Source: Deltaproteobacteria bacterium
Lineage (GTDB): Bacteria; Myxococcota; B64-G9
Direction: 5' to 3'
DNA length: 59,511 bases
NCBI GenBank assembly: GCA_030591445.1
Contig: JAUVBB010000001.1
Span: 1-59,511, forward strand
Shown: positions 25,859 to 49,768 of the stretch, piece by piece
Layout of the letters: each line of letters opens with the position of its first letter
Numbering within the stretch: the first letter of the stretch is position 1
Position numbers and translations under genes: made by a program
The notes under the pieces: generated by a model
The model's input: only the letters and a program-made list of their open reading frames with translations
Told to the model about the DNA's origin: nothing
Database searches by the model: none

Positions 25859-28240
25859 ATGGACAAGTTAGCTCGCAAAGACAAAGACGTCGTTGCCAGG
25901 ATCATCGATCATCGGATCAAGCAGGACGATCTGCGTCAGATGCTTACGGCGCTTAGTGAAGATGATCGCGACGAATTCGTGGTGAAGGTGGCCGACACCT
26001 TGCGCAAGACCACGGCCTTGCTTGAGGTCAGCAAGCAAGTGTCGGACACGCTTTCTTTGGACGTGCTGCTGCCGCGCACGGTGACCTTGATCTCGGAGTT
26101 TCTCGACGCGGATCGTTGTACTTTGTTTCTCAACGATCAAGCCAGCAGTGAGCTATTCTCGCGGGTGGCCGAGGGCGATCTGACCCATGAGATCCGCTTT
26201 CCTAATCACCTGGGCATCGCCGGCTCGGTGTTCAAGAGCGGCGAATCAGCCATCATCGAAGATGCCTACGCCGATGATCGTTTCAACCAAGAGGTCGACC
26301 GCAAGACCGGCTATCGCACCCGCAATATCCTGTGCGCGCCTATCAAAACCGGACGGGGCGAAATCATCGGCGTGGCCCAGGTGCTAAACAAGAACCAGGG
26401 CGACTTTAGTCCCGACGATCTGGATCTGCTCCAGGTGCTCACCTCGCAGGCGGCCTCGGCCTTCGTCAACGCTCAGCTGCACGAAGACATCGAGCGCGCC
26501 CGGCGCGACGAATCAGAGCTACTGGAAATCACCACTGCTATCTCGCAAGAGTTGCAACTCGAGCCCTTGCTGCAAAAGATCATGGAGACGGTCACCGCCA
26601 ATCTCAACGCCGATCGCTCTACTTTGTTTATGTATGACAAAAAGACCGACGAGCTTTGGTCTCACGTGGCCCAGGGCATGGAGACCAAGGAGATCCGCTT
26701 TCCCGCCCACCTGGGCATTGCCGGCTCGGTGTTCAAGAGCGGCGAGACTATCAACATCCCTGATGCCTATGCCGATGATCGTTTCAACCAGGAGGTCGAC
26801 AAGAAAACCGGCTACCACACTCACACCATCCTGTGCATGCCCGTGATCAACAAGCAGAGCAAAACCATCGGGGTGGTCCAGGTGCTCAACAAGCAGGGCG
26901 GGCCTTTCCGCACCAAAGACGAGTTGCGCCTGCGGGCCTTTACCTCCCAGGCCACCATTGCCATCGAGAACGCCCAGTTGTTTGAAGAAGTGGTCTCGAT
27001 GAAGAACTACAACGAGAGCATCCTCGAGAGTATGTCCAACGGCGTGATTACCATCACCGCCGACAACGAAATCGCCACCGCCAACCGCGCGGCTTTGTCC
27101 CTCTTTCGTTGCGTTGACCAGCCCGAAAAGCTGCTCGGTAAAAGCACCGAGAGTTTCTTCTTCGGCCAAAACGCCTGGATCGCCGTCACCCTGGACTCGG
27201 TGCGCTCAAGCGGCAAAACATCCGTGGCCCTGGACGTCGAATTGTGGCTCAACCAAGAAGAACCCAGCGCGGCTTCGGTTAATCTCTCGGTACTGCCTTT
27301 GCTCGACAGCAAAGAACAACACATCGGCTGCCTGCTCATGCTCGAAGATATCACCAAGGAAAAACGTTTGCGCAGCACCATGGCCCGTTACATGACCAAA
27401 GAGGTAGCCGACAAGCTGCTCGAAGATGGCGAGGCCGTCCTCGGCGGCCAGACCCAAAAAGCCACCATCTTGTTCACCGACATCCGCAGCTTTACCTCCA
27501 TCTCTGAAGTGCTAGGCGCCACCGAGACCGTTCGCTTGCTCAACGACTACTTCAGCATCATGGTCGACATCATCCTCGACCACAACGGCATCCTGGACAA
27601 ATACATCGGCGACGCCATGATGGCGGTTTTTGGCGCCCCCTTCGCCACCTCCGAAGACGCCGACAATGCCTTACAAGGCGCCATCGAGATGGTGGTGGCC
27701 TTGCGTCGGTTCAACCAAACCCGTGTTTCGGCCGGCGAAGATCCGGTACACATGGGCGTGGGCATCAACACCGACGAAGTACTCTCGGGCAACATCGGCT
27801 CCATCAAACGCATGGACTACACCGTCATCGGCGACGGCGTGAACCTGGCCTCGCGCTTAGAAAGCGCCAACAAACTTTATGGCACCAAGATCCTCATCAG
27901 CGAAAACACCGCCCAGGCGCTGCGCAAAGACTACCGCCTGCGCGAAGTCGACAAAATCCGGGTCAAGGGCAAAAACGAACCAGTTTCAGTCTTCGCCGTC
28001 ATGGACTGCCACGACGAACAAAGTTTCCCCCGCATGAACGAAGTCCTGGCCCGCTACCAGCACGGTCTCGAGCACTACCACAACCGTAACTGGTCCATGG
28101 CCCAAACCCTTTTCGCCGAAGCCCTGTCCCTCAACCCCAACGACAGCGTCTCCGGCCTGTATCTCAAACGCTGCCAACACTTCCACACCACCCCACCCGC
28201 GGACGACTGGGACGGCATCTGGACCATGACCAGTAAGTAA
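25859..28240 (+). CDS. GAF-GAF-PAS class III adenylate/guanylate cyclase
   Basis: Two GAF units each contain RFPxHLGIAGSVFKSGE...DAYADDRFNQEVDxKTGY. A PAS-like linker follows. Cyclase motifs are ILFTDIRSFTSISE, KYIGDAMMAVFGAP and VIGDGVNLASRLES. Confidence 0.93.
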   Translation: MDKLARKDKDVVARIIDHRIKQDDLRQMLTALSEDDRDEFVVKVADTLRKTTALLEVSKQVSDTLSLDVLLPRTVTLISEFLDADRCTLFLNDQASSELFSRVAEGDLTHEIRFPNHLGIAGSVFKSGESAIIEDAYADDRFNQEVDRKTGYRTRNILCAPIKTGRGEIIGVAQVLNKNQGDFSPDDLDLLQVLTSQAASAFVNAQLHEDIERARRDESELLEITTAISQELQLEPLLQKIMETVTANLNADRSTLFMYDKKTDELWSHVAQGMETKEIRFPAHLGIAGSVFKSGETINIPDAYADDRFNQEVDKKTGYHTHTILCMPVINKQSKTIGVVQVLNKQGGPFRTKDELRLRAFTSQATIAIENAQLFEEVVSMKNYNESILESMSNGVITITADNEIATANRAALSLFRCVDQPEKLLGKSTESFFFGQNAWIAVTLDSVRSSGKTSVALDVELWLNQEEPSAASVNLSVLPLLDSKEQHIGCLLMLEDITKEKRLRSTMARYMTKEVADKLLEDGEAVLGGQTQKATILFTDIRSFTSISEVLGATETVRLLNDYFSIMVDIILDHNGILDKYIGDAMMAVFGAPFATSEDADNALQGAIEMVVALRRFNQTRVSAGEDPVHMGVGINTDEVLSGNIGSIKRMDYTVIGDGVNLASRLESANKLYGTKILISENTAQALRKDYRLREVDKIRVKGKNEPVSVFAVMDCHDEQSFPRMNEVLARYQHGLEHYHNRNWSMAQTLFAEALSLNPNDSVSGLYLKRCQHFHTTPPADDWDGIWTMTSK

Positions 28241-28274: not shown

Positions 28275-30419
28275 CTAGGCGTCGGGTGAAACCCTGCCGG
28301 GTCGCGCCTCTAGCACCATGACGCTGCGGGATGATACTCGCACCGCCGCCGGACCGGCCGGGGGTTGCTCGGAGCGGTTGCGGACATCCGCCGGCGCCGA
28401 TTGGGCGGTATCGATCGCCACCGCCCAGCGGTAGCCTTCAAGCACGGGTAGCTCGGCAGCGACTGGGTCTTCGGACAGGTTCAGAACGATATGCAGGTCT
28501 TCTTCACCCTTGGCCACCGCTCCCAGGGTGAAGGCCAGCACTCGCGCCTGTGGATCTTGCCAGGCCGGCGCGTTTAGCTGGGCGCCATGCCAACGTATCT
28601 CGGGCAAGCGCTGGGCAGAGCCGCGTTCCCCGGTCAAGAAGCGCCGGTGCCGCAGACAGGGATGACGCTTGCGAAAGGCAATCAGGCCCCGGACAAAACG
28701 CAGCATGTCCGCGTTGGGCGCAAGCAAGTCCCAGTCCATCCAGCCAATCTCGTTGTCCTGGCAATAGGCGTTGTTGTTGCCCCGCTGGGTGCGCAACACC
28801 TCGTCGCCGTACAACAACATGGGCACGCCCTGGCTCAGCAGCAGGATGGCCAACAGGTTCTTGGCCTGGCGCCGCCGCAGCTCAATGAGCCTAGAATCGT
28901 CGCTCTCGCCCTCCTGCCCGTAGTTGTGGCCATAGTTCTCGTTGGTTCCGTCGCGGTCATCCTCCCCATTGGCCAGGTTGTGCTTGCGATCGTAGCTGAC
29001 CAGATCGCGGAGAGTGAAGCCGTCGTGGCAGGTCACAAAGTTAATGCTGTTGGAGGGCAGCCGCCCGGCGCTCTGGTAAAGATCGCTGTTGCCGCTCAGG
29101 CGGGTAGCCAACTCGCCAATGAGCCCCCCTTCCCCGCGGACGAAGCGACGAATCACGTCGCGGTAGCGACCATTCCACTCGCGCCAGCGATAGCCGGGAA
29201 ATCCACCCACCTGATAGAGACCGGCGGCGTCCCAGGCCTCGGCGATGATCTTGGTCTGCGCCAGCTGCTCTGACAACTCGATGTGCCAAAGGAAAGACGG
29301 GTGGGTCATGGGCTGGCCGTCCTCGCCCCGCGCCAGCGCGGAAGCAAGATCAAAGCGAAATCCGTCCACGTGGAACTCCCGCACCCAATACTCCAGGCTG
29401 TCGAGCAGACAAGCGTTGACCAGCGGGTGGTTGCAGTTGACGGTGTTGCCGCAACCGGTGAAGTCCCGGTATTGGCGCCGGTCGCTGGGATCGAGGTGGT
29501 AGAAGGTATCGTTGCCAAAGCCCTTGTAATTGATCCACGGGCCGGTCGCACCGCCCTCGGCGGTGTGGTTAAACACCACGTCCAGGATAACGCCGATCCC
29601 GGCCCGATGCAGCGCGCGAACCAGGTCCTTGAACTCCCGCCGGTGGGTTCCTTGCTCGGGGGTAACGCAATAGCCCGGGTGGGGGCTGAAAAAACTATGG
29701 GTGCTGTAGCCCCAGAAGTTGCTAAGCCCAAGCCGGCTGGAACTTGCCGGCAGGTCTTGCACATCGAAGGCCATGATCGGCATCAGTTCGACGTCGGTGA
29801 TGCCGAGATCCTTGAGATAGGGAATCTTCTCGATCATCCCGGCAAAGGTGCCCGGATGCTGTACGCCGGCTGATGGATGGCGCGTAAACGCCCCCAAGTG
29901 CAACTCGTAGAGAATGGTTTCCTCGAAAGGGTGGCCAAGGGGCTGGTCGCCCTCCCAGTCGTAGTCATCATTAACCACCATAGCCCGCATGGACGGGCTG
30001 CGCTCTTCGGGCCGGCTGGCCCGCGCCCGGTCCCAGTGAATATCCGAGACCGCCCGCGCCCAGGGATCTAGCAGTTCTTTGTTGGCGTTGTGGCGAAAAC
30101 CGGTTTCGCGGGTATTGGTCGGCCCATCAACCCGGTAAGTGTACCAAACCCCGCTGGGCAAACCCTCGACGTAGACATGCCAGGTGAAGTAAGTCTGATG
30201 GTGAGTCGGATCCAGCCGGATTACCTGGAAGGGTTTTGCAGCTTCGGCCGATTGGTACAGGTTGAGCTCGACCCAAGTAGCATGCCGACAGAAAATCGAA
30301 AAGTTCACCCCAGAGGGATCCACGGTGGCCCCTTGCGGAAAGCGGCGTCCATGTCTGATCGAGTAGGGCTTTTTCACGTTCATCGGCTGTTCATACCACT
30401 CGACAGCGCGGCTGTACAA
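28275..30419 (-). CDS. glgX: Glycogen debranching enzyme GlgX (GH13)
   Basis: GH13 conserved regions are present: GVILDVVFNHTAEG, HVDGFRFDLASAL, IIAEAWD and FVTCHDGFTL. The start may be the internal MNVKKPYSIRHG at 30383. Confidence 0.93.
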   Translation of the reverse strand: MYSRAVEWYEQPMNVKKPYSIRHGRRFPQGATVDPSGVNFSIFCRHATWVELNLYQSAEAAKPFQVIRLDPTHHQTYFTWHVYVEGLPSGVWYTYRVDGPTNTRETGFRHNANKELLDPWARAVSDIHWDRARASRPEERSPSMRAMVVNDDYDWEGDQPLGHPFEETILYELHLGAFTRHPSAGVQHPGTFAGMIEKIPYLKDLGITDVELMPIMAFDVQDLPASSSRLGLSNFWGYSTHSFFSPHPGYCVTPEQGTHRREFKDLVRALHRAGIGVILDVVFNHTAEGGATGPWINYKGFGNDTFYHLDPSDRRQYRDFTGCGNTVNCNHPLVNACLLDSLEYWVREFHVDGFRFDLASALARGEDGQPMTHPSFLWHIELSEQLAQTKIIAEAWDAAGLYQVGGFPGYRWREWNGRYRDVIRRFVRGEGGLIGELATRLSGNSDLYQSAGRLPSNSINFVTCHDGFTLRDLVSYDRKHNLANGEDDRDGTNENYGHNYGQEGESDDSRLIELRRRQAKNLLAILLLSQGVPMLLYGDEVLRTQRGNNNAYCQDNEIGWMDWDLLAPNADMLRFVRGLIAFRKRHPCLRHRRFLTGERGSAQRLPEIRWHGAQLNAPAWQDPQARVLAFTLGAVAKGEEDLHIVLNLSEDPVAAELPVLEGYRWAVAIDTAQSAPADVRNRSEQPPAGPAAVRVSSRSVMVLEARPGRVSPDA

Positions 30420-30440
30420 GCCCGGATACCCACTTGCTTG

Positions 30441-31349
30441 CTACCACAGAGCGGTCAAGGTAATGCCAAATCCGTCTTGGTAGAAGGATGGGGTGGCCAT
30501 GACTTGGGCCAGACCAAGGAAAGGCTCCGAATCATCTGGGTCGCGGGTGTGTAAGTAGGGTACGGCAAAGCCAATGGCACTGCCAACGGCGGCGCCGACC
30601 AGAACGTCGGACCAAAAGTGTTTGCCGGCTTCCACTCGCAGGAACGCGGTGGAAGCAGCGAGCGCGTGGCTGCCCAGCCAAACCGGAACCACGGCCCAGC
30701 TGTCGGGATGGCGTTGGCTAAAGAGATAGCTATAGGCGGTGGCCATGGTAAACGACAAGGAAGTGTGTCCGGAGAAAAAGGACAAAGAGTCTTCGGTGGC
30801 CGTAGAATCAAAACCGGTCTGGTACATATAAGGTCGAGGCCGGCGAACCATGAACTTGGTCAAGGTACACACGGTGAGGTTGACCGCCACGGCCTCGGTT
30901 AGAATCAGGGCGTCCTGGGCAAAACCTTCGAGGCCTCGATCCTTGCCCACCAACCAGTAGTCAAGCGAGCTTGCCAAAAAGGGTAACACAACGCTGGCAG
31001 CCAGGGTGACATCCGAGGCCATGGCCGCGCTTGGTGAGTGATTGCCCAAAACCGATCGGTCCATGCCATTGAGTTCGGCTGGGTTCAAATTGCGCAAGCT
31101 CAGGTCTCTGCCCAAGTCTCCGCCCAGGAGCTTCGGCGCAATGCCGATGAAAATACCGCTCAAGCTAAGTGACAGATCGGAAGGCATATGCAGCTGGAAC
31201 AGACGGTCCTCATCGACAGGCGCTTGGTCATCGCTCGCCTCCGCGCCTGCGCTGGAACTTTCCAGGCGCTCAACTTCTGCTGGGGATTTGGCTTGGACCT
31301 GCGTTCCAATCAACGACAGCGAGACAACTAGGGTGACTACGGTTTTCAT
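30441..31349 (-). CDS. PAP2-family (lipid) phosphatase, membrane-bound
   Basis: The three PAP2 motifs are present: KFMVRRPRP (Kx6RP), SFFSGHTS (SGH) and RVEAGKHFWSD (Rx5Hx3D). A signal or TM N-terminus is present. AAGGGG is the RBS. Confidence 0.88.
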   Translation of the reverse strand: MKTVVTLVVSLSLIGTQVQAKSPAEVERLESSSAGAEASDDQAPVDEDRLFQLHMPSDLSLSLSGIFIGIAPKLLGGDLGRDLSLRNLNPAELNGMDRSVLGNHSPSAAMASDVTLAASVVLPFLASSLDYWLVGKDRGLEGFAQDALILTEAVAVNLTVCTLTKFMVRRPRPYMYQTGFDSTATEDSLSFFSGHTSLSFTMATAYSYLFSQRHPDSWAVVPVWLGSHALAASTAFLRVEAGKHFWSDVLVGAAVGSAIGFAVPYLHTRDPDDSEPFLGLAQVMATPSFYQDGFGITLTALW

Positions 31350-31443
31350 TCTACCCCTTGGGTATCAACTCGGTCCCCCGAGAATCTAATGATACCTTAA
31401 AGGTAATTTTTGCATGAATCGGCTCTTTTTGACAAGCCCTATT

Positions 31444-33138
31444 TCAGTTCAGGCGGTCCAGACCGACAATCTGCTGACCACGGGGTAAACCATGATCGAA
31501 GAGGTGAACTTCGATGGCGGTGGGCGGGACCGAGGATCGGCGGCGAACGTCAATGCGCAGGACACCGTAGCCCGGTGAGCGATCGCCGAGCGGCAGCAAG
31601 ACGCAGGAACGATCGGGGTGATCGGGGTCGGGTTGAAATTGTAGCCAGCCCAGGCGCTGGTCCAATTGGGGGCCGGCCATCATTTTGACTTGGTACAGGA
31701 CCTGAGCGGGATTGGCACCGGCGTGGCGAATAGCCAGGTCTTCGAAGCACAGCGATTGGGCGGAGTTTCCGGCTTGGCGTCTAAGCAGGCGAAAACGATC
31801 TAGCGGTACATGCTTTTGCAGGTATTCTTCGGTGATAAGATCGCGTCTTTTGCGCAGGGCCTCGAATAAGTATTGCTCATGGCGCGCATTGTGCAAGCGC
31901 CCGGTTTTGACCACGGCATAGAGCTGCGCATCGCTAAAACGGGCAATGATGCGCACCATCCACAAGGCATCGCGGAAAGTCATGCGCGCGTGGGCCGGGT
32001 GCGGGTAGACCGATCGCCACTTCGAGGGCGTGAAGTTTTGCCAGTCGAAATATCCGAAGATCTCGGCCTCGTCGTTAATGCGGGCGTGGGTCCAGGGCCG
32101 AGGCATGAGCCCAAGGCTGAGCATGTCGACCACAATGTGCTCGATATCGAAATAGTAGGAGTGACCTACGCGCCGATCGAGCCGATCGTCCCAGGGACTG
32201 GCCAAGGCGTGGCCGAAATCAATCATGTAATGGCGAACAAAGCGACGGCCATCTTCTTCGACAAACATATCCAAGGAGTTCTGCTCGCGGGTATCGAAAT
32301 TATTGAACCAGGCGGCCAACAAGCGCACGGCTCTCAACTCACGCCGGTTCTCATGGGCAATGATGTCGTTGGGATCGTCTAAGCGCGTGCCTTCGAGTTG
32401 GTGGGGTCCTAAGGGAATGCCGGGCAGAAAACGGCTAGCCGAGGCACGTAGCTCGCCGGTTTTAAGCCGAAAGGCATGGGCCAGGGCCCGCTCGACGGCG
32501 GCCGGCGCTAAGGCAATCTTTTCGCCAAACTCATTGACGGTCACGGCGGCGGGATCAAGCTGCAAAATGTTTCGCCGGAAATAAACAATCTCGTTACAGG
32601 GTGCATGGTAGCCGGCGGCAAAATAGAGCTTCGAGCCAATGACGTCCGCAACCGTCTCCCGCTGCGGCCGATGAGAACCGTCGAACTTGAGCAGGTAAGT
32701 GAAACCGTCGGGAGCCTTGATGAAGAAGCCCGGGTTGATGCCTTCGGTTTTGGCGCGGGTAATCAGCCAGGGCCCGCGTTGCGGATCCAGTGACGGTGCC
32801 TGGCAACTGCCCCGGGCCACTTCCGCGGGCGTCATGTCCACACGGCCGATGCGGTTTACAAACCAGGAAGAATCAGGCACTTCGTCCAGGCTGTTGACAT
32901 TGATTGATTCCAGCGGATCGGAAAAAGCGAGAAAATCAGACCAGGGCCGCAAAACTGTTTGGTCCAAAGCATCGCCAACCAGGGTGGAAGATCGCGCTTG
33001 GGGTTGGGTCGACACATGCTCCCTATCCGGATCCTGCCACAAGGTCTCGGTGGCCGGAAAACCGCGGGGCGCATGGCTGCAAGCGGCCCCCAGCATAGCC
33101 ATGGCAATCCAAATCCATTTATTGCGAAGGTCCGCCAT
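31444..33138 (-). CDS. Exported protein with a protein-kinase-like fold and PI3K/PI4K-like IDFGH signature; function unknown
   Basis: The start MADLRNKWIWIAMAMLGAAC is a signal peptide with a possible lipobox. It sits 1 nt after the upstream stop codon. Kinase-fold candidates are YLLKF (beta3 Lys), RETVADVIGSKLY (alphaC Glu), NNFDTREQNSL (D..N catalytic loop) and HYMIDFGHALAS (DFG). The conserved N-terminal block is NSLDEVPDSSWFVNRIG. Confidence 0.6.
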   Translation of the reverse strand: MADLRNKWIWIAMAMLGAACSHAPRGFPATETLWQDPDREHVSTQPQARSSTLVGDALDQTVLRPWSDFLAFSDPLESINVNSLDEVPDSSWFVNRIGRVDMTPAEVARGSCQAPSLDPQRGPWLITRAKTEGINPGFFIKAPDGFTYLLKFDGSHRPQRETVADVIGSKLYFAAGYHAPCNEIVYFRRNILQLDPAAVTVNEFGEKIALAPAAVERALAHAFRLKTGELRASASRFLPGIPLGPHQLEGTRLDDPNDIIAHENRRELRAVRLLAAWFNNFDTREQNSLDMFVEEDGRRFVRHYMIDFGHALASPWDDRLDRRVGHSYYFDIEHIVVDMLSLGLMPRPWTHARINDEAEIFGYFDWQNFTPSKWRSVYPHPAHARMTFRDALWMVRIIARFSDAQLYAVVKTGRLHNARHEQYLFEALRKRRDLITEEYLQKHVPLDRFRLLRRQAGNSAQSLCFEDLAIRHAGANPAQVLYQVKMMAGPQLDQRLGWLQFQPDPDHPDRSCVLLPLGDRSPGYGVLRIDVRRRSSVPPTAIEVHLFDHGLPRGQQIVGLDRLN

Positions 33139-33139
33139 A

Positions 33140-34501
33140 TCAGTACCCCTGGTTAATGCCCAGGACGAAATGAACCCGGTCGACTTGTAACGAACCTTCG
33201 TCCAGCCGGCTGCTGCCAAAGGCCAGCATCATGTCAAATGAGACATCGCGAGAATTGTTCGAGCGTAAACCGAAACCCCAACTCAAACGGGTACGATCTA
33301 CCGCAAAGCCCTCAAAATCGGGTCCGAAAACACCACCGGCGCTGACAAACATGTCGGCATCCAGAAAGGCCCAGACCGGAAAACGATAGTCGGCGGTCAC
33401 CACCGCCCCGCTTTGTCCGCGCAAGCGTCCGGCCAAGAAACCACGCAGGTACTCCAAACCACCAAAACTGGTGAGCTCAGTAAAGGGCACCGGTCGCGCA
33501 CCGATTTTACTCACTTGCTCGGCATGCAAGCGCAAACCCAGCACGTGGTTGACGCCGCTCCAATCCCAGAAGCCGGCTAGCTCTCCGCCATAGCGCACAA
33601 AGGCAAGAGACGAATCAGCAGGATCCACGGCCAGGGCGCTTTGCAGTTCCAGCCGCAGCCCAGTCCCCGGGGACCACTGGCGCTGATCACTGCGGCTGTC
33701 GAGCGCCAGTTTCGCCGAAGCCTCGGCCAGTTGGTAGGTTGCGAAACCGGGAACCAGAACCGGGTCGGTCAAGTCGTAGACTTCCTCGATGGATCGACCC
33801 TGTCCGCTGCCAAAGCGCGTTTGCCGGAAGCCTAGCCAAAACGAGACCGTGTTGAGCCCGGATATTTTACTCTCCAAACCGGCGTCGACCGACAAGAGCG
33901 TTTCACGATAACGAGTCAACAGACCCGATCGACCGTCGGGGCCCAGGCCAACTCCGGCAAACAAATGGTCGGGCCGGGTGGTGTACTCAGCCCTGAGAAC
34001 CAGACTGCCGGTGTTGCCGGCAAATACTCCCAACCGATTCTCGGCGGCCAGCCGGATCCACTGGTCCGACCAGAATCCAGCGCGTACGATCAGCTTGTGA
34101 TGGCTAAGCAGCAAGTTCTCCAAATAAGCATAAAAACCCACGTGGGGATTGAGGCCGAACTCGACAAAGGCGGTAGGAAAGAAACCGGCCTGGCCGTCTA
34201 CCCAAGTAAAGAAGCGTTTGAGCCGGGCAAAAACATGGTGCTCTTCCCCCCAATCGACCACCGCCACTAATGGTCCCCGCAACACGCGTTCCACCAAAAC
34301 ATGGGCCGGATGAAACAGGACGCGCGGCACCCAACGCAGCGCCTCGGCCGCGGTGGGCGGTGCCGGTTCGGCTCGCCCGTAGTCCGGCATCGGTCTTTTT
34401 TCAGTCGCCGAGACTGGACCTAGCCAAAGACAGAGGAACAAAACCGGTATTATCGCTGTCCAGCCTCGGCCTGGAGAACGAAACATGATCTTGCCCATCA
34501 A
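33140..34501 (-). CDS. Omp85/D15-family outer-membrane beta-barrel lacking recognisable POTRA domains
   Basis: The signal peptide is AIIPVLFLCLWLGPVSA. The C-terminal region LEYLRGFLAGRLRGQSGAVVTADYRFPV...DADMFVSAGGVF...FVLGINQGY is typical of the bacterial surface antigen barrel. Its ATG overlaps the upstream stop in an ATGA overlap. Confidence 0.7.
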   Translation of the reverse strand: MMGKIMFRSPGRGWTAIIPVLFLCLWLGPVSATEKRPMPDYGRAEPAPPTAAEALRWVPRVLFHPAHVLVERVLRGPLVAVVDWGEEHHVFARLKRFFTWVDGQAGFFPTAFVEFGLNPHVGFYAYLENLLLSHHKLIVRAGFWSDQWIRLAAENRLGVFAGNTGSLVLRAEYTTRPDHLFAGVGLGPDGRSGLLTRYRETLLSVDAGLESKISGLNTVSFWLGFRQTRFGSGQGRSIEEVYDLTDPVLVPGFATYQLAEASAKLALDSRSDQRQWSPGTGLRLELQSALAVDPADSSLAFVRYGGELAGFWDWSGVNHVLGLRLHAEQVSKIGARPVPFTELTSFGGLEYLRGFLAGRLRGQSGAVVTADYRFPVWAFLDADMFVSAGGVFGPDFEGFAVDRTRLSWGFGLRSNNSRDVSFDMMLAFGSSRLDEGSLQVDRVHFVLGINQGY

Positions 34502-35727
34502 GAAGACTGTTCACAATCGGTACAAACCTGATCTGGCTTAAGTGCCCGTCCAGTTGCCAAACGACCGCTCTGATTGAGATTGTAGATTCGGCCGCGCCAG
34601 CGAAGCTCGCGCTTGAATGAAACCATGGCCAAGACCAAGGGCGCCGACAGCAAAACAGCAAAGGCAACCAGGCGGCCAAAACCATGGAGCCGTCCGCCGC
34701 CGATCATCCGATGCAGGCGATGATACGAGAGGCTAACCGCCATGGGCGCCAAGCCGCTTAAGGCGGCGGCCAACCACCAAGACTGTGACCAGGCAATGGC
34801 CGATGCGGCCAAGCCCAACCAAAACACCGCGCCACGCACATAACCATGTATCTTGAACTGCCGGCCAGGCAAACCACTGCGCGAAAAGGTCAACCAGCGG
34901 GCATAGGTGCGCAGAAACTCACCCAGGCCGACGCCATGTTGAATGATGGGCACAGACTGGGGCACCACCCGGTTGTCAAAACCGGCGGCCTGCACCCGGG
35001 CACCGATGTACATGTCATCCACCAGTTGTCCTTCGACACTCTGCAAACCGCCAATGGCTGCAAGCGCCTCGCGCCGAAAGGCCATGAACTGTCCCATGAT
35101 AAAGGGCAGTTTTCCACCACCACTCGCGGCCGCCGCGGCCGCCGCCGGCCCGTAGAGGCCGTTGATCATCATGGCATAGCCGGCATCGCCCAGGGTCTCG
35201 GCGTCGCTGGTCACGACCACCGGGGCAAAGGCAGAGCCCGCCTTCTCATCGGACATTAACGTCTCGACTAGTTGGGCCAGAGATTGGCGACCGGTGCGAA
35301 TGTCCGAATCGGCAAAAACAACAATCTCGCCCTTGGCTTTGGCCAAACCCGCGATCATGGCATGGAGCTTGCCGGTGCGACCCGCCAGCGGTTCACCCGA
35401 AAAGAGAATCGAAGCGCTGCGGTCTATGGATGCTGCCGCCGCGGCGATGGCCTTTTGCGCCAAGGCCAAGGCCGGCTCGGTCTGATTATCAAAAACGAAG
35501 ATCGTCTCCACCGAAGCCGGATAGTCGTTATCCAGAGAAGCCCTCAGGTTCTCCTGGGCACCAACGTCCAGTCCTTTGATGGGACGGATAACCGATACCG
35601 ATGGGTAACGGACGAGGGGGCTGCTGTTTTTCTGCGCGCGCAAAGCGCGGCTGAGTCGAATATGAGATCGAGCGGTTTGCCACAACAAAACCGCCGCCAA
35701 CAGAATCAACAAGATTTCGAAGTACAT
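34498..35727 (-). CDS. GT2-superfamily glycosyltransferase, Glyco_transf_21-like (ceramide glucosyltransferase / HpnI-like)
   Basis: The N-terminal TM segment is MYFEILLILLAAVLLW. VSVIRPIKGLDVGAQENLRASLDNDYP...FVFD, GKLHAMIAGL...VVFADSDIR and MGQFMAFRREAL are present, together with C-terminal TM helices. AGGAG lies 7 nt upstream of ATG 35727. The track ORF starts at 35802. Confidence 0.8.
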   Translation of the reverse strand: MYFEILLILLAAVLLWQTARSHIRLSRALRAQKNSSPLVRYPSVSVIRPIKGLDVGAQENLRASLDNDYPASVETIFVFDNQTEPALALAQKAIAAAAASIDRSASILFSGEPLAGRTGKLHAMIAGLAKAKGEIVVFADSDIRTGRQSLAQLVETLMSDEKAGSAFAPVVVTSDAETLGDAGYAMMINGLYGPAAAAAAASGGGKLPFIMGQFMAFRREALAAIGGLQSVEGQLVDDMYIGARVQAAGFDNRVVPQSVPIIQHGVGLGEFLRTYARWLTFSRSGLPGRQFKIHGYVRGAVFWLGLAASAIAWSQSWWLAAALSGLAPMAVSLSYHRLHRMIGGGRLHGFGRLVAFAVLLSAPLVLAMVSFKRELRWRGRIYNLNQSGRLATGRALKPDQVCTDCEQSS

Positions 35728-35740
35728 GGTTCGGCTCCTT

Positions 35741-36373
35741 TCACCGGGCGGCAACCAACTTCCGGATGGAGGCAAACAGATCGGGAACTTCCCTACCCGC
35801 ATTGGATCGGGCCAGCCACTTAGGCAACCAGCCGGCTAGATCCAATTGGGCTTGAAAACGCAGGCGCGTGGCCTTACCGCTGGCCAGCGGCACAAGTTGC
35901 CAACTGCCATGATGAAAGGGAACACGTACGATGCCGTCTCTTTCTTCTAAACCAAGACTGTTGGCCGTCCGGTACACAATCCACTGATTTTCGCCATCTG
36001 CGCCCCAGGTCACATAGAGAGTAAAATCCCGATCACTGATAATGGGCAGATTCAGATGCTGGTAGACCACAATCCAACCGGGTCCGTTCTTTAGCACTAC
36101 GCTCTCGCTCACCCGGGCAATGTTGCCCTTTTGCGAAGCGTAATCGAGCAGCACTGCCCGCACCAAATCGGGCGGCGCCGCAATTGTGCCTTCGGCGGCC
36201 ACCCGGATATTATCCGAGGTCTTGTGCTTATACACTGTAACCCCGTATTTATAGGCAATCTTTTCAAAACCCACGCCGTTCAAATTCTCGTCCAATGGGG
36301 TGAGCTCGGCGCCAGAAACTGGCAGGACAATCATAAAGACCGTCCATATTATAACCTTCGTTCCTATTCTCAT
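35741..36373 (-). CDS. Exported START/SRPBCC lipid-binding domain protein
   Basis: MRIGTKVIIWTVFMIVLPVSGAE is a signal peptide. START-like blocks are PIISDRDFTLYVTW, VRVPFHHGSWQLVPL..KATRLRFQAQLDLAGWLPKWL. AAGGGGG lies 5 nt upstream of ATG 36373. Confidence 0.75.
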   Translation of the reverse strand: MRIGTKVIIWTVFMIVLPVSGAELTPLDENLNGVGFEKIAYKYGVTVYKHKTSDNIRVAAEGTIAAPPDLVRAVLLDYASQKGNIARVSESVVLKNGPGWIVVYQHLNLPIISDRDFTLYVTWGADGENQWIVYRTANSLGLEERDGIVRVPFHHGSWQLVPLASGKATRLRFQAQLDLAGWLPKWLARSNAGREVPDLFASIRKLVAAR

Positions 36374-36404
36374 GGCGGCCCCCTTTCTCTTGATTTTTGC
36401 TACC

Positions 36405-36420
36405 AGCAATGAGCGTGCCA
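36405..36420 (-). promoter_or_regulatory. Sigma54 (RpoN) -24/-12 promoter of the START operon
   Basis: The minus strand reads TGGCACG-CTCA-TTGCT, an exact match to the consensus TGGCACG-N4-TTGCW. The -12 GC lies ~33 nt upstream of ATG 36373, and the RBS falls in between. Confidence 0.75.
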
Positions 36421-36499
36421 TCAGCATATTTTTCGACATAATCATTGATAACGGCGCATTACAGAAAGTATCCCACTTCAGCACGAACGCCCAGGCTCA

Positions 36500-36543
36500 G
36501 TGACACACCTTACGAGACACTTTATCGAGACAGTACTGAGACA
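36500..36543 (-). promoter_or_regulatory. Four phased direct repeats; candidate enhancer-binding-protein or response-regulator site
   Basis: The plus strand has GTGACA at 36500 and GAGACA at 36514, 36527 and 36538, with spacings of 14, 13 and 11 bp. On the minus strand these read TGTCTC/TGTCAC. They lie 80-125 bp upstream of the sigma54 element. Confidence 0.4.
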
Positions 36544-36547
36544 GGAG

Positions 36548-38962
36548 TCAATCGATAAGACGAATACTGCTGATGCGGGAGGAGACGGCCAAGGATACCG
36601 TTCCCTGCTCTACTTCTAACTGCTCCAGATCGCGTTCGCGGGCATCGCAGCGGTAAGCTTTCTGCACCGAACGCGATGGGCAGCGAAGGCTTACTTGGGT
36701 GCCCTTGGGGGCCGAGCTTGAAAGCCGAACAATGATCCCGGGGCCGCGGTGGGCCGGCTTGACCGCGGTGACCCGCACATCGGCCCGATTGCTTTGAACC
36801 AGGGAAGCAGTCGCCCCTTCTAAATCCGGGGCCGAAGAATCAAGCCAGGCTGGAGACATGACCTGCCGCGCTTGACCCGCAAAATCGCCCGGCGCGCCAT
36901 CCCCGAGCGCGGCAAAACGAACCGCATAGTCAAAGTCATGCTCTTGGTCATCGTGGCCCGCGGCGGGATGCGCTGGAACCGGCAAAAAACCAAAGGCCCG
37001 CTCCCAGGGGGCATAGCGCAACACCATCCACTCCAGCGCTCCGTGGGCCCGTGCTGATACGCTGGCCGGCCGGCCCAACAAAAGCAGGCACTCGCGATCC
37101 CGGCGACGATCTTGCAATTGCACAAAGCTCTGGGCACACCAGAAAGTCGGTCGCGTTAGTTTGTGGGCCGGTCGGGTGATTAGGGCGCCGGGCACATCCA
37201 TGTGCAGCTTGCCCACCGATAACTTGATCGGAAAGCTGCAGGTCACAGTTTGCCGACGCGACGCGGCCCCGCGGGTTCGCATCCGGATGACCGGTGAATC
37301 GGCACGAAACCAGAGCCAACGGGTGGTGGGCTGAAAATCAAGCCGACAATCCACCCGTAGCTCAAGCACATTGCCGCGCTCGGTGGCCTGGATCTCGGCC
37401 TGATTGAGACTGCATCGGTCCCGCTCTCGAAAATGACCACCGCAGTACTCGTGACCCAAACGCCACAAACCGCCGGTGTCGCCGTAGGCAATCATGTCGT
37501 TGGCCGGACCACGCAGATACTCGGTGCTGCCGGAAGCATCCTGAAGACTCACGATGCAGCCACCAAGCCGTTCGTCGAGCACCAGCTGATAGTGAGACGT
37601 GGTCACCAGCCACTTTCCGTCTTGCCGGCGCAGGCTGGGTGGCGCTGCCGGTGCCGGTTTCTTTTCGACGGCAGCGACCGCTTGGCACTGCGAAAGCACA
37701 CCATCGACCAGTGCCAATCCCTCTGCCAACCAGGGTTCTTGCTCTTCGATCACCGTTCGGTCAGGGGAAGTGCCGGTGATAAAATCATGGTGATTGCTCA
37801 ACACGGCCAGATTCCAGGCCGACTCCAGATCCTGCAGGCGCGGGTCCGCCGACTGCTGCCGACCATCAGCCAGCACCAGTTTTTCCGCCAATTGCAGCTT
37901 GTCGGTCAACTCCCGGCAGCGTTGCTTGAGCCCCGGTCGGCTGGCATAGTGGCCCATCCAAAAAGGATTGGGATCGAGGTCCACCGTGGGCAAACACTCA
38001 CGGTGAAAATCAACCAGTCTCAGGTAATCGTCGGCGGCGGCATTGACCACCCAGACGCCGGTATCGGGATAGCGCTTGCGGTTATAGCGATCCAGCAATT
38101 CGATCAATTGCGGCATGGGTCCGTTGAAATCACAACCGATGGGGCAGGACATATAAGGTGTTTTGGCCAAGGGGGCCAGTTGCTTGATCAGGGCGGCAAT
38201 CTGCGCCGCCACATGACGCTCCGTACGCCAGGGAACCCCGAACAACTTGTCCATCCAACGAATCACCCCGCGAGAACCAAGCATGTCTCCCTGAAAATAA
38301 GTAAAAGCGTTCCAATGGCACAAGACTTCGGCCCCGTCGGGCGCCCGCCAGACAAAGTCTAAGGTCTGTAGCTCTTTCAACAGCAACTGCGCACTCGAAC
38401 CTCGCTGGGGAAAACTTTTTTCCGTCCGGTAATCACATCCCACGAAGTGCATGCCATCGATTCGGGTGATGACTGTCTTGTCGAATCCCAGTGCTGATAG
38501 CATTGCCGGTACGCCCGGCGATGAACCGAAATCGTCGGGCAGATAGGCAAGATCCGGTTCGGCCTCGATTCCATTTCGCCGCAGCCATTCCTGGCCCAAC
38601 AGATAATCGCGTAGGATGGACTCGGGGTCGGGCAAATTGGTATCCGGGGTGGTCATGCCGGTGCCGATCAAACGCAGTTGTCCGCTATGGATCAGTTCTC
38701 GCAGTTTCTCTCGCTGGGAGCTTTCTTGCTCGAAAAACTGGACCAAAAAGAAAAGGCTCTCGATCGAAAACACGCGGCGTGGATTTTTTTCTAGCTCGGA
38801 AATCACCCGCAGCATGATGGGCTGGATTTTTCGCCGGTAGTACTCATCCGAGGTATACAGCCAATTGGGATCCCAGTGACTGCTCTCCCCGAAAACGAGC
38901 ACCCGCTCGGCCTCAACAGGAATACCCAGGCGCTGTCGTGTTTCCGACTCTTGCATCTCCAT
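36548..38962 (-). CDS. GH38-like alpha-mannosidase family protein, cytoplasmic
   Basis: The N-terminus VFGESSHWDPNWLYT retains the HxD metal ligands of the GH38 HxHxDxxW block. YLPDDFGSSPGVPAMLSALGFD matches the DxFG block. No signal peptide is present. Length is 804 aa. Confidence 0.65.
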   Translation of the reverse strand: MEMQESETRQRLGIPVEAERVLVFGESSHWDPNWLYTSDEYYRRKIQPIMLRVISELEKNPRRVFSIESLFFLVQFFEQESSQREKLRELIHSGQLRLIGTGMTTPDTNLPDPESILRDYLLGQEWLRRNGIEAEPDLAYLPDDFGSSPGVPAMLSALGFDKTVITRIDGMHFVGCDYRTEKSFPQRGSSAQLLLKELQTLDFVWRAPDGAEVLCHWNAFTYFQGDMLGSRGVIRWMDKLFGVPWRTERHVAAQIAALIKQLAPLAKTPYMSCPIGCDFNGPMPQLIELLDRYNRKRYPDTGVWVVNAAADDYLRLVDFHRECLPTVDLDPNPFWMGHYASRPGLKQRCRELTDKLQLAEKLVLADGRQQSADPRLQDLESAWNLAVLSNHHDFITGTSPDRTVIEEQEPWLAEGLALVDGVLSQCQAVAAVEKKPAPAAPPSLRRQDGKWLVTTSHYQLVLDERLGGCIVSLQDASGSTEYLRGPANDMIAYGDTGGLWRLGHEYCGGHFRERDRCSLNQAEIQATERGNVLELRVDCRLDFQPTTRWLWFRADSPVIRMRTRGAASRRQTVTCSFPIKLSVGKLHMDVPGALITRPAHKLTRPTFWCAQSFVQLQDRRRDRECLLLLGRPASVSARAHGALEWMVLRYAPWERAFGFLPVPAHPAAGHDDQEHDFDYAVRFAALGDGAPGDFAGQARQVMSPAWLDSSAPDLEGATASLVQSNRADVRVTAVKPAHRGPGIIVRLSSSAPKGTQVSLRCPSRSVQKAYRCDARERDLEQLEVEQGTVSLAVSSRISSIRLID

Positions 38963-39172: not shown

Positions 39173-40990
39173 ATGAATCGTTTTCGCGGAATCCTCTCCT
39201 TGCCTGCCGGAGTTTCGGCAGCAGCGTTCTTGATCGTGTTCTCCATTTATTCTTTCGGCTGCAGCGACAACAAGCTGGTTCGGCTTGAGGGTTCGCTGCT
39301 GGTTAAGATCTTGAACGCGGATTTGTCGGCCGAATCGGTACATGTGGTCGCCCAACAAACGGATGACGGATTTCGCCAAGCGAGCGGCGATATCGGCAGC
39401 CAAGAAACATTGGTGGCCATCAACCATCTGACCCCCGGGCGCTGGTCCACCCAAGTCGTTACCCTTGACCAGCAAGGCGAACAACTGCAGTTCATCGAGG
39501 TGTCGAACATCATCATCAAAGACGGACAGACCACCGAGGTAGTCGTCGATCTGGGTGTCGAGCAAGTTGCCTGCGACGAAAACAGTGCCGCGCCCCTGTG
39601 CTGGGAGTGCCGCGAGGGAGAATGGGCCACGGCCCAGCACGACTCGCGCTGTGCCAATGTTGATTGCAGCGCCTTCGCTTGGTCTGAGATTCGCGGCGAC
39701 AACACGGCCGCGGGCAGCTCTCAGTGCGTCCAAGCCGACGCCCCCGACCTCAGCGAAAATCTCTGTACCGAGGCCGGCCAATGTCTGACAGCCAGTGCCG
39801 AAACCTGTGTCACTACCGAGTTCACCGCCGCCACCGCCGAGCGCTGCCACACCATCGAGTCCTGCGCTAGCGACAATCCGCAAGTTCTTATCTCCGCCGA
39901 CGGCACCGTTTGCGGCATCGACCTGATTTGTCAGAGTGGCGACTGTGTGCCGGTCGAACCCGAATGCACCCTGGCCAGTGAAGCGCCCTTGTGTATGGAA
40001 TGCCAAGAGGGCGAGTGGACGCCCAGTGACGACGACCCGCGCTGCGGAGCTATCGATTGTAGTTCTTTCGAGTGGTACCAACTCAGAGGCATGAACGACG
40101 CCAGTGGCGAATCCGAATGTGTGCACGGTGCCGGCAAAGACATCACCGAGAATCGCTGTCTCGGCCCGGATCAATGCATCAGCGCCAGCGCTGAACTTTG
40201 CCCACTGGAAGAGGTCCTGGTAGCCAAGGCCGGTCTCTGTCACACCATTGATCAATGTACTTCGAGCTCGCCCATGGTAATCCGGTCTCCCGACGATACG
40301 CCCTGTGGCCCGGCCAAGATTTGTCGCCAAGGAATCTGCGTCGATAATCAGGCACCCGAATATGGTTGCGCCGATGACAGCCGCGAAGGTTTTGTCTCCC
40401 TGGACGACTACCCCGCCATCGCCGCCTGTGCCGGCGCCTGGGATATCGGCGGCATTACCCGCCCGGATCTGGCCGCCCAATGCGCCCACAATTCCGGCAA
40501 CGACTCGGCCAACCCAGAAGGCACGGGCTGCAGCGCCGCCGACCTCTGCGCCGCCGGCTGGCATGTCTGTCTCGGCAAAGATGAAGTATCCGCCAAGGCA
40601 CCGAGCGGCTGTGGAGACGCCGTCCCACCAGGCACACCCGACAAGTCCCTTTTCTTTGCCGTAGCCCAAAACTCCCAGGCCGACAGCATTTGCGATCAAA
40701 GCGACCAGGGCAACGACATCTTTGGCTGCGGTAACCTGGGCTCCATCCTGCCCGCCGATAGAAACTGCGGCCCGCTCAACCGGGTCCTGGCCAGCATGCA
40801 CGCCGACAGCTGTGGCTTCAACGAAGCCGAACCACCCTTGGGTCCTTGGCTCTGCTCCGGCGACGCCGACAGCCATCTGCACGAAGGCTCACTGGTGCGC
40901 AAGAGCGGCTGTGGCTCCTCCTCATGCAGCTACGACGGCCACCCCATCAACAACTCCGACAAGGGTGGGGTCCTTTGTTGTCGTAATTAA
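39173..40990 (+). CDS. Cys-rich lipoprotein with an internally duplicated 131-aa module and an uncharacterised Cys-rich C-terminal domain
   Basis: FLIVFSIYSFGC is a lipobox. Module A (from 39599) and module B (from 39992) align as PLCWECREGEW...CQSGDCVP and PLCMECQEGEW...CRQGICVD. The C-terminal domain contains CAAGWHVC. The overlapping 599-aa minus-strand ORF is Gly/Ala-rich antisense noise. Confidence 0.8.
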   Translation: MNRFRGILSLPAGVSAAAFLIVFSIYSFGCSDNKLVRLEGSLLVKILNADLSAESVHVVAQQTDDGFRQASGDIGSQETLVAINHLTPGRWSTQVVTLDQQGEQLQFIEVSNIIIKDGQTTEVVVDLGVEQVACDENSAAPLCWECREGEWATAQHDSRCANVDCSAFAWSEIRGDNTAAGSSQCVQADAPDLSENLCTEAGQCLTASAETCVTTEFTAATAERCHTIESCASDNPQVLISADGTVCGIDLICQSGDCVPVEPECTLASEAPLCMECQEGEWTPSDDDPRCGAIDCSSFEWYQLRGMNDASGESECVHGAGKDITENRCLGPDQCISASAELCPLEEVLVAKAGLCHTIDQCTSSSPMVIRSPDDTPCGPAKICRQGICVDNQAPEYGCADDSREGFVSLDDYPAIAACAGAWDIGGITRPDLAAQCAHNSGNDSANPEGTGCSAADLCAAGWHVCLGKDEVSAKAPSGCGDAVPPGTPDKSLFFAVAQNSQADSICDQSDQGNDIFGCGNLGSILPADRNCGPLNRVLASMHADSCGFNEAEPPLGPWLCSGDADSHLHEGSLVRKSGCGSSSCSYDGHPINNSDKGGVLCCRN

Positions 40991-48137: not shown

Positions 48138-48153
48138 TGGCACGTAAGTTGCT
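48138..48153 (+). promoter_or_regulatory. Sigma54 (RpoN) -24/-12 promoter of the S41 peptidase gene
   Basis: TGGCACG-TAAG-TTGCT is an exact consensus match. The -12 GC at 48151-48152 lies 33 nt upstream of ATG 48185. The GGAGGAG RBS falls in between. Confidence 0.75.
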
Positions 48154-48184: not shown

Positions 48185-49768
48185 ATGATTGCGTCGACTG
48201 ATGGCTTGCGCTGGTTTTGGGTATGGTTTGTCGTTTTGCTGCTAAATTCTGGCTGTTCCTCCGGCCAAGATCTGGTCATTAGCAAAGTACAGGTTGGCCA
48301 GTTTGACGACGATCAGTGGCTGGAGGATTACTGCCAGACGCAGGGCTGGTACCAGGATGGCGTCTGTGACGGTTTCTGCCCCTTGCCCGAACCGGATTGC
48401 AGCGAGGAATGTGCGCCGCTGGGAACTCTTCACTGCCAGGATGGCTTGGTCTGTATCGAAGGAGAGTGTGTTGTTCCCAGCCCCAGTGCAAACCAGCAAA
48501 CCCAGATCGATTTGGTGCAGGAAGCAATTGATCAGATGTTGTATTACACCGGCTGGGTCGACGACTTTGATCTGGGGCTCGAAGATCTTGCCGATCAAGT
48601 CTGGTGGACCATCGTCGAGGGAGACGAGAGTGATTCCTATCTATACCAAGCCATGCGCTTGGCCCTACTCGCTTTTCCGGTGGGACACCAGGTCATCTAT
48701 TTAGCCGACACTAATCTTTGCAGCCAAAAAGAAATGTTTTGGCAAAGCGCGTCGCGACTGGGCGTATGTGCGCGGCCCTACGGCGACGACTTTGTGATAA
48801 CCCATGTTCTGGACGGCAATCCTCTGGGTTTGCAGGCCGGCGACCGCATCCGTGCGGTGGCGGGTCTCAGCGGCACTGACATGGTCGAGGAAGTATTACG
48901 CTACCCGGTTTGTGGCAGCGCTTCGGCGTCCCCGGCCAACCGGAGAATCGCTGCGGCCACCTCGCTTTTTTCTTCGATTCCCGAAGGCACCCGGCTCGAT
49001 ATCGTCCACATCGACGGCAGCCAGAGCCAACTCGAAATCCCCCCGGCCGAGATCAGCTATCTAGATTGCCGCTATCCACGGGGCGGAGACATGTGGTTCA
49101 ACGCCCGTACCACTCTATTGGCTAACGACATCGCGGTGATTACCTTACCGCGTCTCTATCCCACCCAGGCCACCGGCAACGAAGGCTACGACGAATTGAT
49201 CGACATGATGAAGTCATCGGTGCAAGAAGCCTTCGACCAAGCCAAACACGCGCAGGGAATCATTTGGGATCTGCGCGCCAATGTCGGCGGCATCACCCCC
49301 ATTGGCTTGGAGATCGTCGGCGGCATGCCCACCGCCCGCGCCCAAACCATCGCTTTCGGCGGGCGACGCATTCCAGGAAGCAAGCCAGTCACCCTGACGA
49401 ACGAGTTCGAGTACGCAGTGCAACCGGGAGGGGATTTCAGCTACCAAGGGAAGGTAGCCGTTTTGGCCGACGGCCTATCGGTAAGCGCCGCCGATTATTT
49501 CCTACTCGCAATCGCTGAAGCTACCGATGTTCCCATCATCGGCACCGGGGCCGCCGGCGCTTACGGCGGCAGCGGCTTTACCGTCACTGTTGGCAACGAC
49601 CCCAGTTTTATCATCGGCATCGACCCCTACCGCATCGAAGACGCCCAGGGTCAAGTGTTAGAAGGCTATACCGTTGACCCCCATCGTTTCGTTGAGCAAG
49701 ATCCCGAGGATCTTAGCCAAGGAATCGACACCCAACTCCAAGCCGCCATCGCCTTGCTGCTCGAATAG
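48185..49768 (+). CDS. S41-family peptidase lipoprotein with an N-terminal Cys-rich module
   Basis: FWVWFVVLLLNSGC is a lipobox. VAVLADGLSVSAADYFLLAI resembles the S41 GxSxSAxE catalytic Ser block. GGAGGAGAG lies upstream of ATG 48185. Confidence 0.7.
   Translation: MIASTDGLRWFWVWFVVLLLNSGCSSGQDLVISKVQVGQFDDDQWLEDYCQTQGWYQDGVCDGFCPLPEPDCSEECAPLGTLHCQDGLVCIEGECVVPSPSANQQTQIDLVQEAIDQMLYYTGWVDDFDLGLEDLADQVWWTIVEGDESDSYLYQAMRLALLAFPVGHQVIYLADTNLCSQKEMFWQSASRLGVCARPYGDDFVITHVLDGNPLGLQAGDRIRAVAGLSGTDMVEEVLRYPVCGSASASPANRRIAAATSLFSSIPEGTRLDIVHIDGSQSQLEIPPAEISYLDCRYPRGGDMWFNARTTLLANDIAVITLPRLYPTQATGNEGYDELIDMMKSSVQEAFDQAKHAQGIIWDLRANVGGITPIGLEIVGGMPTARAQTIAFGGRRIPGSKPVTLTNEFEYAVQPGGDFSYQGKVAVLADGLSVSAADYFLLAIAEATDVPIIGTGAAGAYGGSGFTVTVGNDPSFIIGIDPYRIEDAQGQVLEGYTVDPHRFVEQDPEDLSQGIDTQLQAAIALLLE

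Follow-up and report, generated by a model that had tools for sequence, protein, structure and literature searches.

Two independently conserved envelope gene modules, one pairing a POTRA-less Omp85 protein with a predicted kinase-like lipoprotein, probably lie juxtaposed in one Myxococcota genome

We analyzed a stretch of 59,511 nucleotides (nt) from a Deltaproteobacteria bacterium (GTDB lineage Myxococcota; B64-G9; GenBank assembly GCA_030591445.1, contig JAUVBB010000001.1, positions 1 to 59,511), hereafter the window, and concentrated on a 6-kb cluster of minus-strand genes at positions 30441-36543. In the direction of transcription, the cluster encodes a START-like protein, an integral-membrane glycosyltransferase of family 21 (GT21), a POTRA-less member of the Omp85 family, a kinase-like protein that is predicted to be an outer-membrane lipoprotein, and a PAP2-family phosphatase. 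A first-pass annotation made from the sequence alone had proposed that these genes constitute one dedicated system for synthesizing and trafficking an envelope glycolipid. Comparison of gene order in related loci does not bear this out and points to a lineage-specific juxtaposition of two envelope modules that are conserved independently of each other. Module A comprises the START-like protein and GT21, with a glycoside hydrolase of family 38 (GH38) as a neighbor. Module B comprises the Omp85 protein and the kinase-like protein, with PAP2 as an occasional accessory. Taken together with the functions that we propose for the two modules below, this is the reading we consider probable. The coordinates of all features are collected in Table 1; L and P numbers are our labels for loci and proteins, respectively.

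Table 1. Features of the gene cluster in the window, followed by loci from the comparison set cited in the text.
Feature	Position	Strand	Remark
GH38 (alpha-mannosidase family)	36548..38962	-	Module A neighbor, outside the coordinates of the first-pass annotation
Candidate upstream activator site, 3x TGTCTC and 1x TGTGTC	36502..36543	-	-170 to -129 from the START ATG
Sigma54-type -24/-12 element TGGCACGCTCATTGC, TGGCAC-N5-TTGC	36406..36420	-	Exact consensus match
START/SRPBCC-like protein, 210 aa	35741..36373	-	Module A
GT21 integral-membrane glycosyltransferase, 409 aa	34498..35727	-	Module A
POTRA-less ('noNterm') Omp85-family protein	33140..34498	-	Module B
Kinase-like predicted outer-membrane lipoprotein, 564 aa	31444..33138	-	Module B
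PAP2-family membrane phosphatase with signal peptide	30441..31349	-	Occasional module B accessory
GlgX	28275..30419	-	Passes equivalog cut-off, 690 bits
Example loci, putative sterol clusters	L126:7625-9631, L124:6240-7382, L125:4721-6949		

All seven genes from GH38 to GlgX are co-directional on the minus strand and together span 28275-38962. The dense packing described in the first-pass annotation is real, with two corrections. More specifically, the START open reading frame (ORF) runs from an ATG at 36373 to a TGA at 35743-35741, and is separated from the GT21 ATG by a 13-nt gap, AAGGAGCCGAACC, that contains the reported AGGAG. The GT21 stop codon (TGA, 34500-34498) and the Omp85 start codon (ATG, 34498-34496) do overlap, but by the single nucleotide at 34498; the junction reads TTGATG and not ATGA as previously given, and an alternative TTG start for Omp85 lies at 34501. 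The Omp85 stop codon (TGA, 33142-33140) is followed by a single T and then by the ATG of the kinase-like gene at 33138, as described. A gap of 94 nt precedes the PAP2 ATG (31349), again in agreement with the earlier account, while the 21 nt reported between PAP2 and glgX hold only if glgX starts at the TTG at 30419. The ATG at 30383 (M13) is probably its actual start, and this gap then becomes 57 nt.

The database gene call for the Omp85 protein (P0196, 416 aa) begins 36 codons later than ours and lacks a signal peptide. On sequence grounds the long start is the correct one, because it provides both a signal peptide and the family motif KRxxPDYxGR, and is supported by homologues. Within the 94-nt gap before PAP2 we found a sigma70-like site (TTGTCA-18-AAAAAT, with a TG upstream; 31435-31406, minus strand), and PAP2 and glgX may therefore be transcribed apart from the upstream genes, from their own promoter. 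The family assignments originally made for the products of the cluster stand, as documented below, and export signals, first noted on three of the proteins, are present on four of the five.

The 5' end of the sigma54-type element is located 47 nt upstream of the START ATG on the correct strand (36420-36406), exactly as first annotated. Exact matches to TGGCAC-N5-TTGC are found twice in the window against an expectation of 0.23, and similar elements stand upstream of START in L083, L086/L101 and L102, making a sigma54 promoter at this position plausible. The phased direct repeats announced upstream of it were also recovered: copies of TGTCTC lie at 36543-36538, 36532-36527 and 36519-36514 and are followed by TGTGTC at 36507-36502, with spacings of 11, 13 and 12 nt. 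A generic repeat finder missed these 6-nt units, which are too short for it, and they were confirmed by direct reading and by a regular expression. In L086/L101, TGTCTC occurs at -158/-147, compared with -159/-146 for copies in the window. Because this position is nearly identical upstream of a START gene whose product is only 51% identical, there is good evidence in the sequence that TGTCTC represents a real, conserved upstream activator site. Ten further ORFs of the window scanned against Pfam contained no enhancer-binding-protein domain. A single sigma54-dependent transcript probably covers both modules in this genome.

The second exact TGGCAC-N5-TTGC in the window is found at 48138-48152 on the plus strand, about 33 nt upstream of an ORF (48185-49768, plus strand) encoding a predicted lipoprotein with a Peptidase_S41 domain. 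It is probably a second sigma54 promoter, since its geometry matches that at the START gene.

To compare gene order, we used 81 unique loci encoding the kinase-like protein, each extended by at most 8 kb to either side, together with a START/GT21 set in which 39 metagenome loci carry GT21 relatives and 9 loci carry START homologues. Neighbors were judged only by tblastn with the window proteins and by ORFs checked against Pfam; naive clustering of ORFs was dropped, as it gave antisense artefacts at high-GC loci. The two halves of the cluster separate completely in this comparison. None of the 81 kinase-like loci carries START or GT21 within about 8 kb of the kinase-like gene, and neither the Omp85 protein, the kinase-like protein, PAP2 nor TLC was found among the START/GT21 loci. 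An orthologue of Omp85, on the other hand, adjoins the kinase-like gene in 71 of the 81 loci (54 on the same strand upstream, 4 on the same strand downstream and 13 convergent), and those without an adjacent Omp85 are mostly cut contigs.

Module A holds together in the same manner. START stands directly upstream of most GT21 orthologues that are at least 48% identical (about 22 metagenome loci plus L083-L086), and GH38 adjoins the START-GT21 pair in five lineages (orthologues 45-51% identical; L086/L101, L104, L107, L111). A 1,079-nt metagenome contig (L130) that is 96-100% identical to the window has the same promoter-START-GT21 beginning and is too short to reveal more. GlgX was considered as a further part of the unit and ruled out, with no GlgX match in 130 related loci. 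Convergent with glgX lies a class III adenylate/guanylate cyclase of GAF-GAF-PAS architecture (25859-28240, plus strand), for which no link to the cluster was established; divergent from GH38, a gene at 39173-40990 (plus strand) encodes a 605-aa Cys-rich predicted lipoprotein that contains internal repeats and matches nothing in Pfam.

The five-gene module is therefore not conserved, because none of the 81 kinase-like loci and none of about 45 START/GT21 loci combines both halves. This bears directly on the system originally proposed, in which GT21 would make a phosphate-free glycolipid, the START protein would carry it across the periplasm, and Omp85, the kinase-like protein and PAP2 would handle it at the outer membrane. 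Within the window several features favor that proposal: the genes are co-directional and tightly spaced (intervals of 13 nt and 1 nt, and one overlap of 1 nt), a lone sigma54 promoter precedes them, and every product is an envelope protein. Elsewhere the halves never occur together and their conserved partners differ, GH38 for one and an NTT/TLC ATP/ADP-transporter-family gene for the other. We consider a single five-gene system highly improbable; judged by gene order it is already refuted as a conserved system, and a local coupling specific to this genome is a separate matter.

The kinase-like protein of module B is one of a large family, with at least 897 homologues, all unnamed and without Pfam domains, and 3,529 clusters at 50% identity. 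In GTDB species-representative genomes, 504 sites encode a relative; the best 80 of these 504 all belong to Myxococcota or to metagenome-assembled genomes labeled 'Deltaproteobacteria' or 'Proteobacteria', and include Sorangium cellulosum So ce56, in which the homologue is encoded at about NC_010162.1:8,754,981-8,756,672 beside a convergent Omp85 gene and an adjacent NTT gene. Searches of Pfam, NCBIfam and PDB with the single sequence and with a profile gave nothing significant. A HipA_2 Pfam match over the N-lobe stays at 13.2 bits (cut-off 27, E 0.054), no Fam20 profile matched, and the PDB profile search returned no kinase.

The kinase fold emerges from the AlphaFold2 model (pLDDT 86.8, pTM 0.88), for which Foldseek returned Fam20C, Fam20A, Helicobacter pylori CtkA, Vps34, PI4K2A and HipT with probabilities of 0.57-1.00 and E-values of 3e-4 to 3e-2. 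These matches include PI-kinases, and the kinase-like fold suspected for the 564-aa protein in the first-pass annotation thus holds at the level of the model. Residues 446-564 form a C-terminal beta-sandwich.

We examined the predicted active site in 127 family members that are 29-46% identical to the kinase-like protein of the window. Lys is kept at position 151 in 119 members, Asp or Glu at 165 in 110 (in roughly equal shares), Asp at 282 in 123, Asn at 287 in 118 and Asp at 307, followed by F-G, in 124. The corresponding structural roles are the beta3 Lys (K151), the alphaC acidic residue (165), the DxxxxN catalytic loop (D282 and N287) and the metal-binding DFG motif (D307). These residues fit the order of elements in the model: a strand at 147-152, a helix at 160-175, a loop after the helix at 266-278, and the DFG motif after strands at 288-305.

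Two pairs of cysteines co-vary in the same set. C112 and C181 are both present in 52 members and both absent from 74, with 1 discordant member; for C464 and C512 the counts are 70, 57 and 0. The co-varying pairs are therefore predicted disulfides, and hence indicate a location outside the cytoplasm. Furthermore, the lipobox position is occupied by Cys in 30 of 30 aligned members, mostly within a typical lipobox, and in 101 of the 127 divergent members, and the residue at +2 after this Cys is never Lys or Asp. In Myxococcus xanthus and E. coli, Lys or Asp at +2 are residues for inner-membrane retention (PMC3222651). The kinase-like protein is accordingly predicted from its sequence to be a lipoprotein sorted to the outer membrane, with residues 21-564 as its mature form, and by these features it looks like an exported enzyme that would be active. 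A SitA-like polymorphic lipoprotein toxin was considered and rejected, as the family is highly conserved, is not polymorphic and shows no immunity-gene pattern.

The conservation of the active site also bears on whether the protein is an enzyme at all. It might be a pseudokinase serving as a non-catalytic scaffold, in the manner of BamD, for a specialized Omp85 insertase: Omp85 proteins of the BAM type work with lipoproteins, and Fam20A, one of the top fold matches, is a pseudokinase. Retention of the full set of catalytic residues at 29-46% identity would be unusual for a pseudokinase, however, and we regard a purely structural role as improbable.

The partner of the kinase-like protein is assigned to the Omp85 family by Pfam (44 bits, cut-off 24) and by its AlphaFold2 model (pLDDT 85), in which a signal peptide precedes three helices (residues 50-97), followed by a barrel that has about 16-17 strand segments according to DSSP. 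Solved members of the Omp85 superfamily have 16-strand barrels. Foldseek matched the model to the BamA and TamA barrels (E ~5e-12, probability 1.0). The model contains no POTRA domain: its N-terminus consists of the three helices, with no beta-alpha-alpha-beta-beta unit, in keeping with the POTRA-less Omp85 first annotated here. With its BamA/TamA-like barrel, the absence of POTRA and an RGF motif as in loop L6 of Omp85, the protein falls into the 'noNterm' subfamily, whose function is unknown (Heinz and Lithgow, 2014, PMC4104836) and which has paralogues in Leptospira (PMC11358297). Its own clade is set apart by some 50 aa of conserved helical sequence at the N-terminus, with the motif WVPRV...RRPLG, and by the near-obligate kinase-like lipoprotein partner, neither of which we found described in the literature. 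In one protein (P0259), a complete kinase-like protein and Omp85 are fused in frame, with only the signal peptide missing from the Omp85 part.

Beyond Omp85, the most frequent neighbor of module B is a gene of the TLC/NTT ATP/ADP-transporter family, found at most 3 kb away in 39 of the 81 loci. Every Sorangium locus is among them, as are about 25 further lineages (examples of these 39 loci are L002, L009, L047, L053, L075 and L081). The NTT gene frequently begins 20-35 nt downstream of the kinase-like gene, and is sometimes followed by a second gene encoding an NTT-HEAT fusion and by a cyclic-nucleotide-binding protein. All ten NTT-like genes that we tested passed the Pfam TLC cut-off. In relatives of module B, these neighbors match operons with NTT-HEAT and cyclic-nucleotide-binding domain genes that are known from free-living bacteria and, according to excerpts of Major et al. 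(2017, PMC5381601), are uncharacterized; the same excerpts mention no link of such operons to Omp85 or to a kinase-like lipoprotein.

In the window, the position usual for NTT is held by PAP2, which was correctly recognized as such (Pfam 72.5 bits, cut-off 27.2) and has the lipid phosphate phosphatases LPP1-3 as best solved relatives. PAP2 is found within 1.5 kb of the Omp85/kinase-like pair in 4 of the 81 loci and additionally beside Omp85 in L075. A protein that appeared to be a fusion of the kinase-like protein with PAP2 (P0251) was rejected as a fusion for its low-complexity, frameshifted-looking middle, and counts as an adjacency only.

We propose a mechanism for module B on the basis of these sequence features. 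The kinase-like lipoprotein would be a phosphotransferase acting outside the cytoplasm, in the periplasm or at the surface, with its anchor in the outer membrane; its dedicated Omp85 protein would serve it either as a docking site or as a passage. Where an NTT is encoded, it would exchange cytoplasmic ATP for ADP and so feed the kinase-like enzyme. The phosphorylated envelope substrate of that enzyme, in all likelihood a lipid or a glycan, would also be the one on which PAP2 acts.

A different arrangement of the same two partners deserves weighing against this one. Here, Omp85 would move the lipoprotein to the cell surface in the style of two-partner secretion, of the type Vd protein PlpD or of Slam, and the lipoprotein would modify extracellular, matrix or prey molecules with ambient ATP. 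The fusion in P0259 has the passenger-then-barrel order of type Vd systems, the conserved N-terminal helical segment stands in the place of POTRA (the pore of FhaC is plugged by an N-terminal helix), and Fam20C and H. pylori CtkA, both of them secreted kinases, are among the closest folds. Like FhaC/FHA and PlpD, module B sets a dedicated Omp85-family barrel beside a single partner and has a fused passenger-barrel version. It differs from both in lacking POTRA and a two-partner secretion (TPS) domain, and in having a kinase-fold lipoprotein enzyme as the partner; set beside TpsB and TpsA, its Omp85 protein is without the two POTRA domains and the partner without any Pfam domain. In addition, linkage to an inner-membrane NTT suggests that nucleotides are delivered to the periplasm rather than that external ATP is used. 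We see surface secretion as a possibility, though not a strong one.

Returning to the proposed phosphotransferase docked to its dedicated Omp85, two known groups of kinases offer the nearest comparisons. The first is the eukaryotic Fam20 family of secretory-pathway kinases, for which lumenal ATP is supplied by an ATP/ADP exchanger. Fam20 kinases provide the closest fold match (4kqa, 5wrs) and are likewise exported beyond the cytoplasm with disulfides, which in the kinase-like protein are predicted; the genetic linkage of module B to an ATP/ADP-transporter-family gene in nearly half of its loci is a further parallel. The kinase-like protein shows no detectable sequence similarity to Fam20, its TM-scores reach only about 0.3, and it is a predicted bacterial lipoprotein paired with Omp85. 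The second group comprises HipA, CtkA and the PI3/PI4-kinases. The protein matches CtkA (TM to target 0.49), HipT, Vps34 and PI4K2A, and shares the D-x4-N loop and the DFG-type motif with this group. It differs from this group in having no toxin-antitoxin context, in being, by prediction, exported and lipidated, and in its additional conserved N-terminal segment and C-terminal beta-sandwich.

We turn to module A, whose START protein scores above the cut-offs of PF03364 Polyketide_cyc (27.3 bits, cut-off 23.4) and, marginally, of PF01852 START (22.3 bits, cut-off 22). Among solved structures it is best matched by a START protein from bacteria (PDB 3qsz, E 1.3e-4), in line with the first assignment; it has an N-terminal signal peptide, and 75 homologues were found. 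The GT21 assignment is equally sound, with 96.1 bits to Pfam Glyco_transf_21 (cut-off 21.7) and ceramide glucosyltransferase (UGCG) as best solved relative (E 1e-10). Among NCBIfam models the best match is the HpnI equivalog TIGR03472, at 123.9 bits and thus under its cut-off of 310. HpnI is the bacteriohopanetetrol glucosamine glycosyltransferase. The enzyme differs from HpnI in this score, in having an exported START-like protein and, in many cases, GH38 beside it, and in its genomic context: the window ORFs that we examined include no squalene-hopene cyclase or hpn genes. The GH38 protein itself matches Glyco_hydro_38N with 136 bits, has the middle and C-terminal domains, and lacks a signal peptide.

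A sister clade of this GT21 is found in sterol, and not hopanoid, contexts. In metagenome loci L116-L129, GT21 relatives 43-44% identical to the window enzyme stand beside a 2,3-oxidosqualene cyclase, which passes TIGR03463 (871 bits, cut-off 851), a squalene synthase-like protein and an MMPL-type transporter. Squalene synthase is the best-matching model for the second of these, at 112 bits and below cut-off. By gene content these look like sterol gene clusters, making their GT21 genes candidate sterol-conjugating glycosyltransferases. Myxobacteria produce conjugated sterols, of which neither the conjugates nor the enzymes have been identified (PMC10202945).

We infer that the START-GT21 pair both makes and handles a membrane lipid that carries a sugar and may be a triterpenoid, because GT21 relatives lie in the putative sterol clusters, myxobacteria have conjugated sterols and START domains are classic binders of sterols and lipids. 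More specifically, GT21 would glycosylate a lipid of the inner membrane, be it a polycyclic triterpenoid of the sterol type, ceramide or diacylglycerol, and the exported START protein would bind that lipid or its glycosylated product in the periplasm. In one lineage (L083/L084; 9968-11737 and 2867-4636, respectively), a phosphoglucomutase/phosphomannomutase gene directly follows START-GT21, an adjacency that hints at sugar-nucleotide supply for GT21.

Several observations weigh against our overall reading of two independent modules with these functions. The tight coupling in the window, above all the 1-nt overlap of the GT21 stop and Omp85 start codons, leaves room for a locally acquired shared role, and most orthologous loci have no sigma54 element ahead of START. 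For module B, the Foldseek TM-scores to known kinases are low (0.2-0.5) and no kinase family is reached at the sequence level; the window contains no NTT gene, such that an ATP supply is not evident here; and the linkage to PAP2 is weak, at about 6% of loci. For module A, the association of GT21 with GH38 offers no simple chemistry, because GT2-type enzymes invert configuration and GH38 acts on alpha-mannosides.

The first-pass annotation had further held that the combination of genes is undescribed. For the exported kinase-fold protein with Omp85 this appears to be correct, as we found no description of the pair in the literature, while the tie to START and GT21 is not conserved. The Omp85-kinase-like pair, with NTT where present, is the part that deserves follow-up, bearing in mind that Omp85 proteins that have their own partner, and atypical kinases that are exported, are both of known kinds. 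The kinase-like family is large and has no Pfam or NCBIfam model, yet it combines a complete kinase active site with predicted export. Its near-obligate pairing would give a function to one clade of POTRA-less Omp85 proteins, and the operonic link to NTT/TLC gives the uncharacterized NTT and NTT-HEAT genes of free-living bacteria a testable role. In module A, the START-GT21 pair and the GT21 genes linked to oxidosqualene cyclase are candidates for the enzymes behind conjugated bacterial sterols (PMC10202945).

Given the linkage to NTT, one may ask whether cells deliberately provide the periplasm with ATP. The most far-reaching answer, which we put forward as a speculation and consider unlikely, is that many Myxococcota phosphorylate outside the cytoplasm: a lipoprotein kinase held or exported by Omp85 would use periplasmic ATP fed by NTT to modify an envelope lipid or glycan, and PAP2 would reverse the reaction. 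If true, the arrangement would parallel, in bacteria, the secretory-pathway kinase system of eukaryotes, and would contradict what is, to our knowledge, a working rule: that ATP-driven chemistry does not take place in the periplasm.

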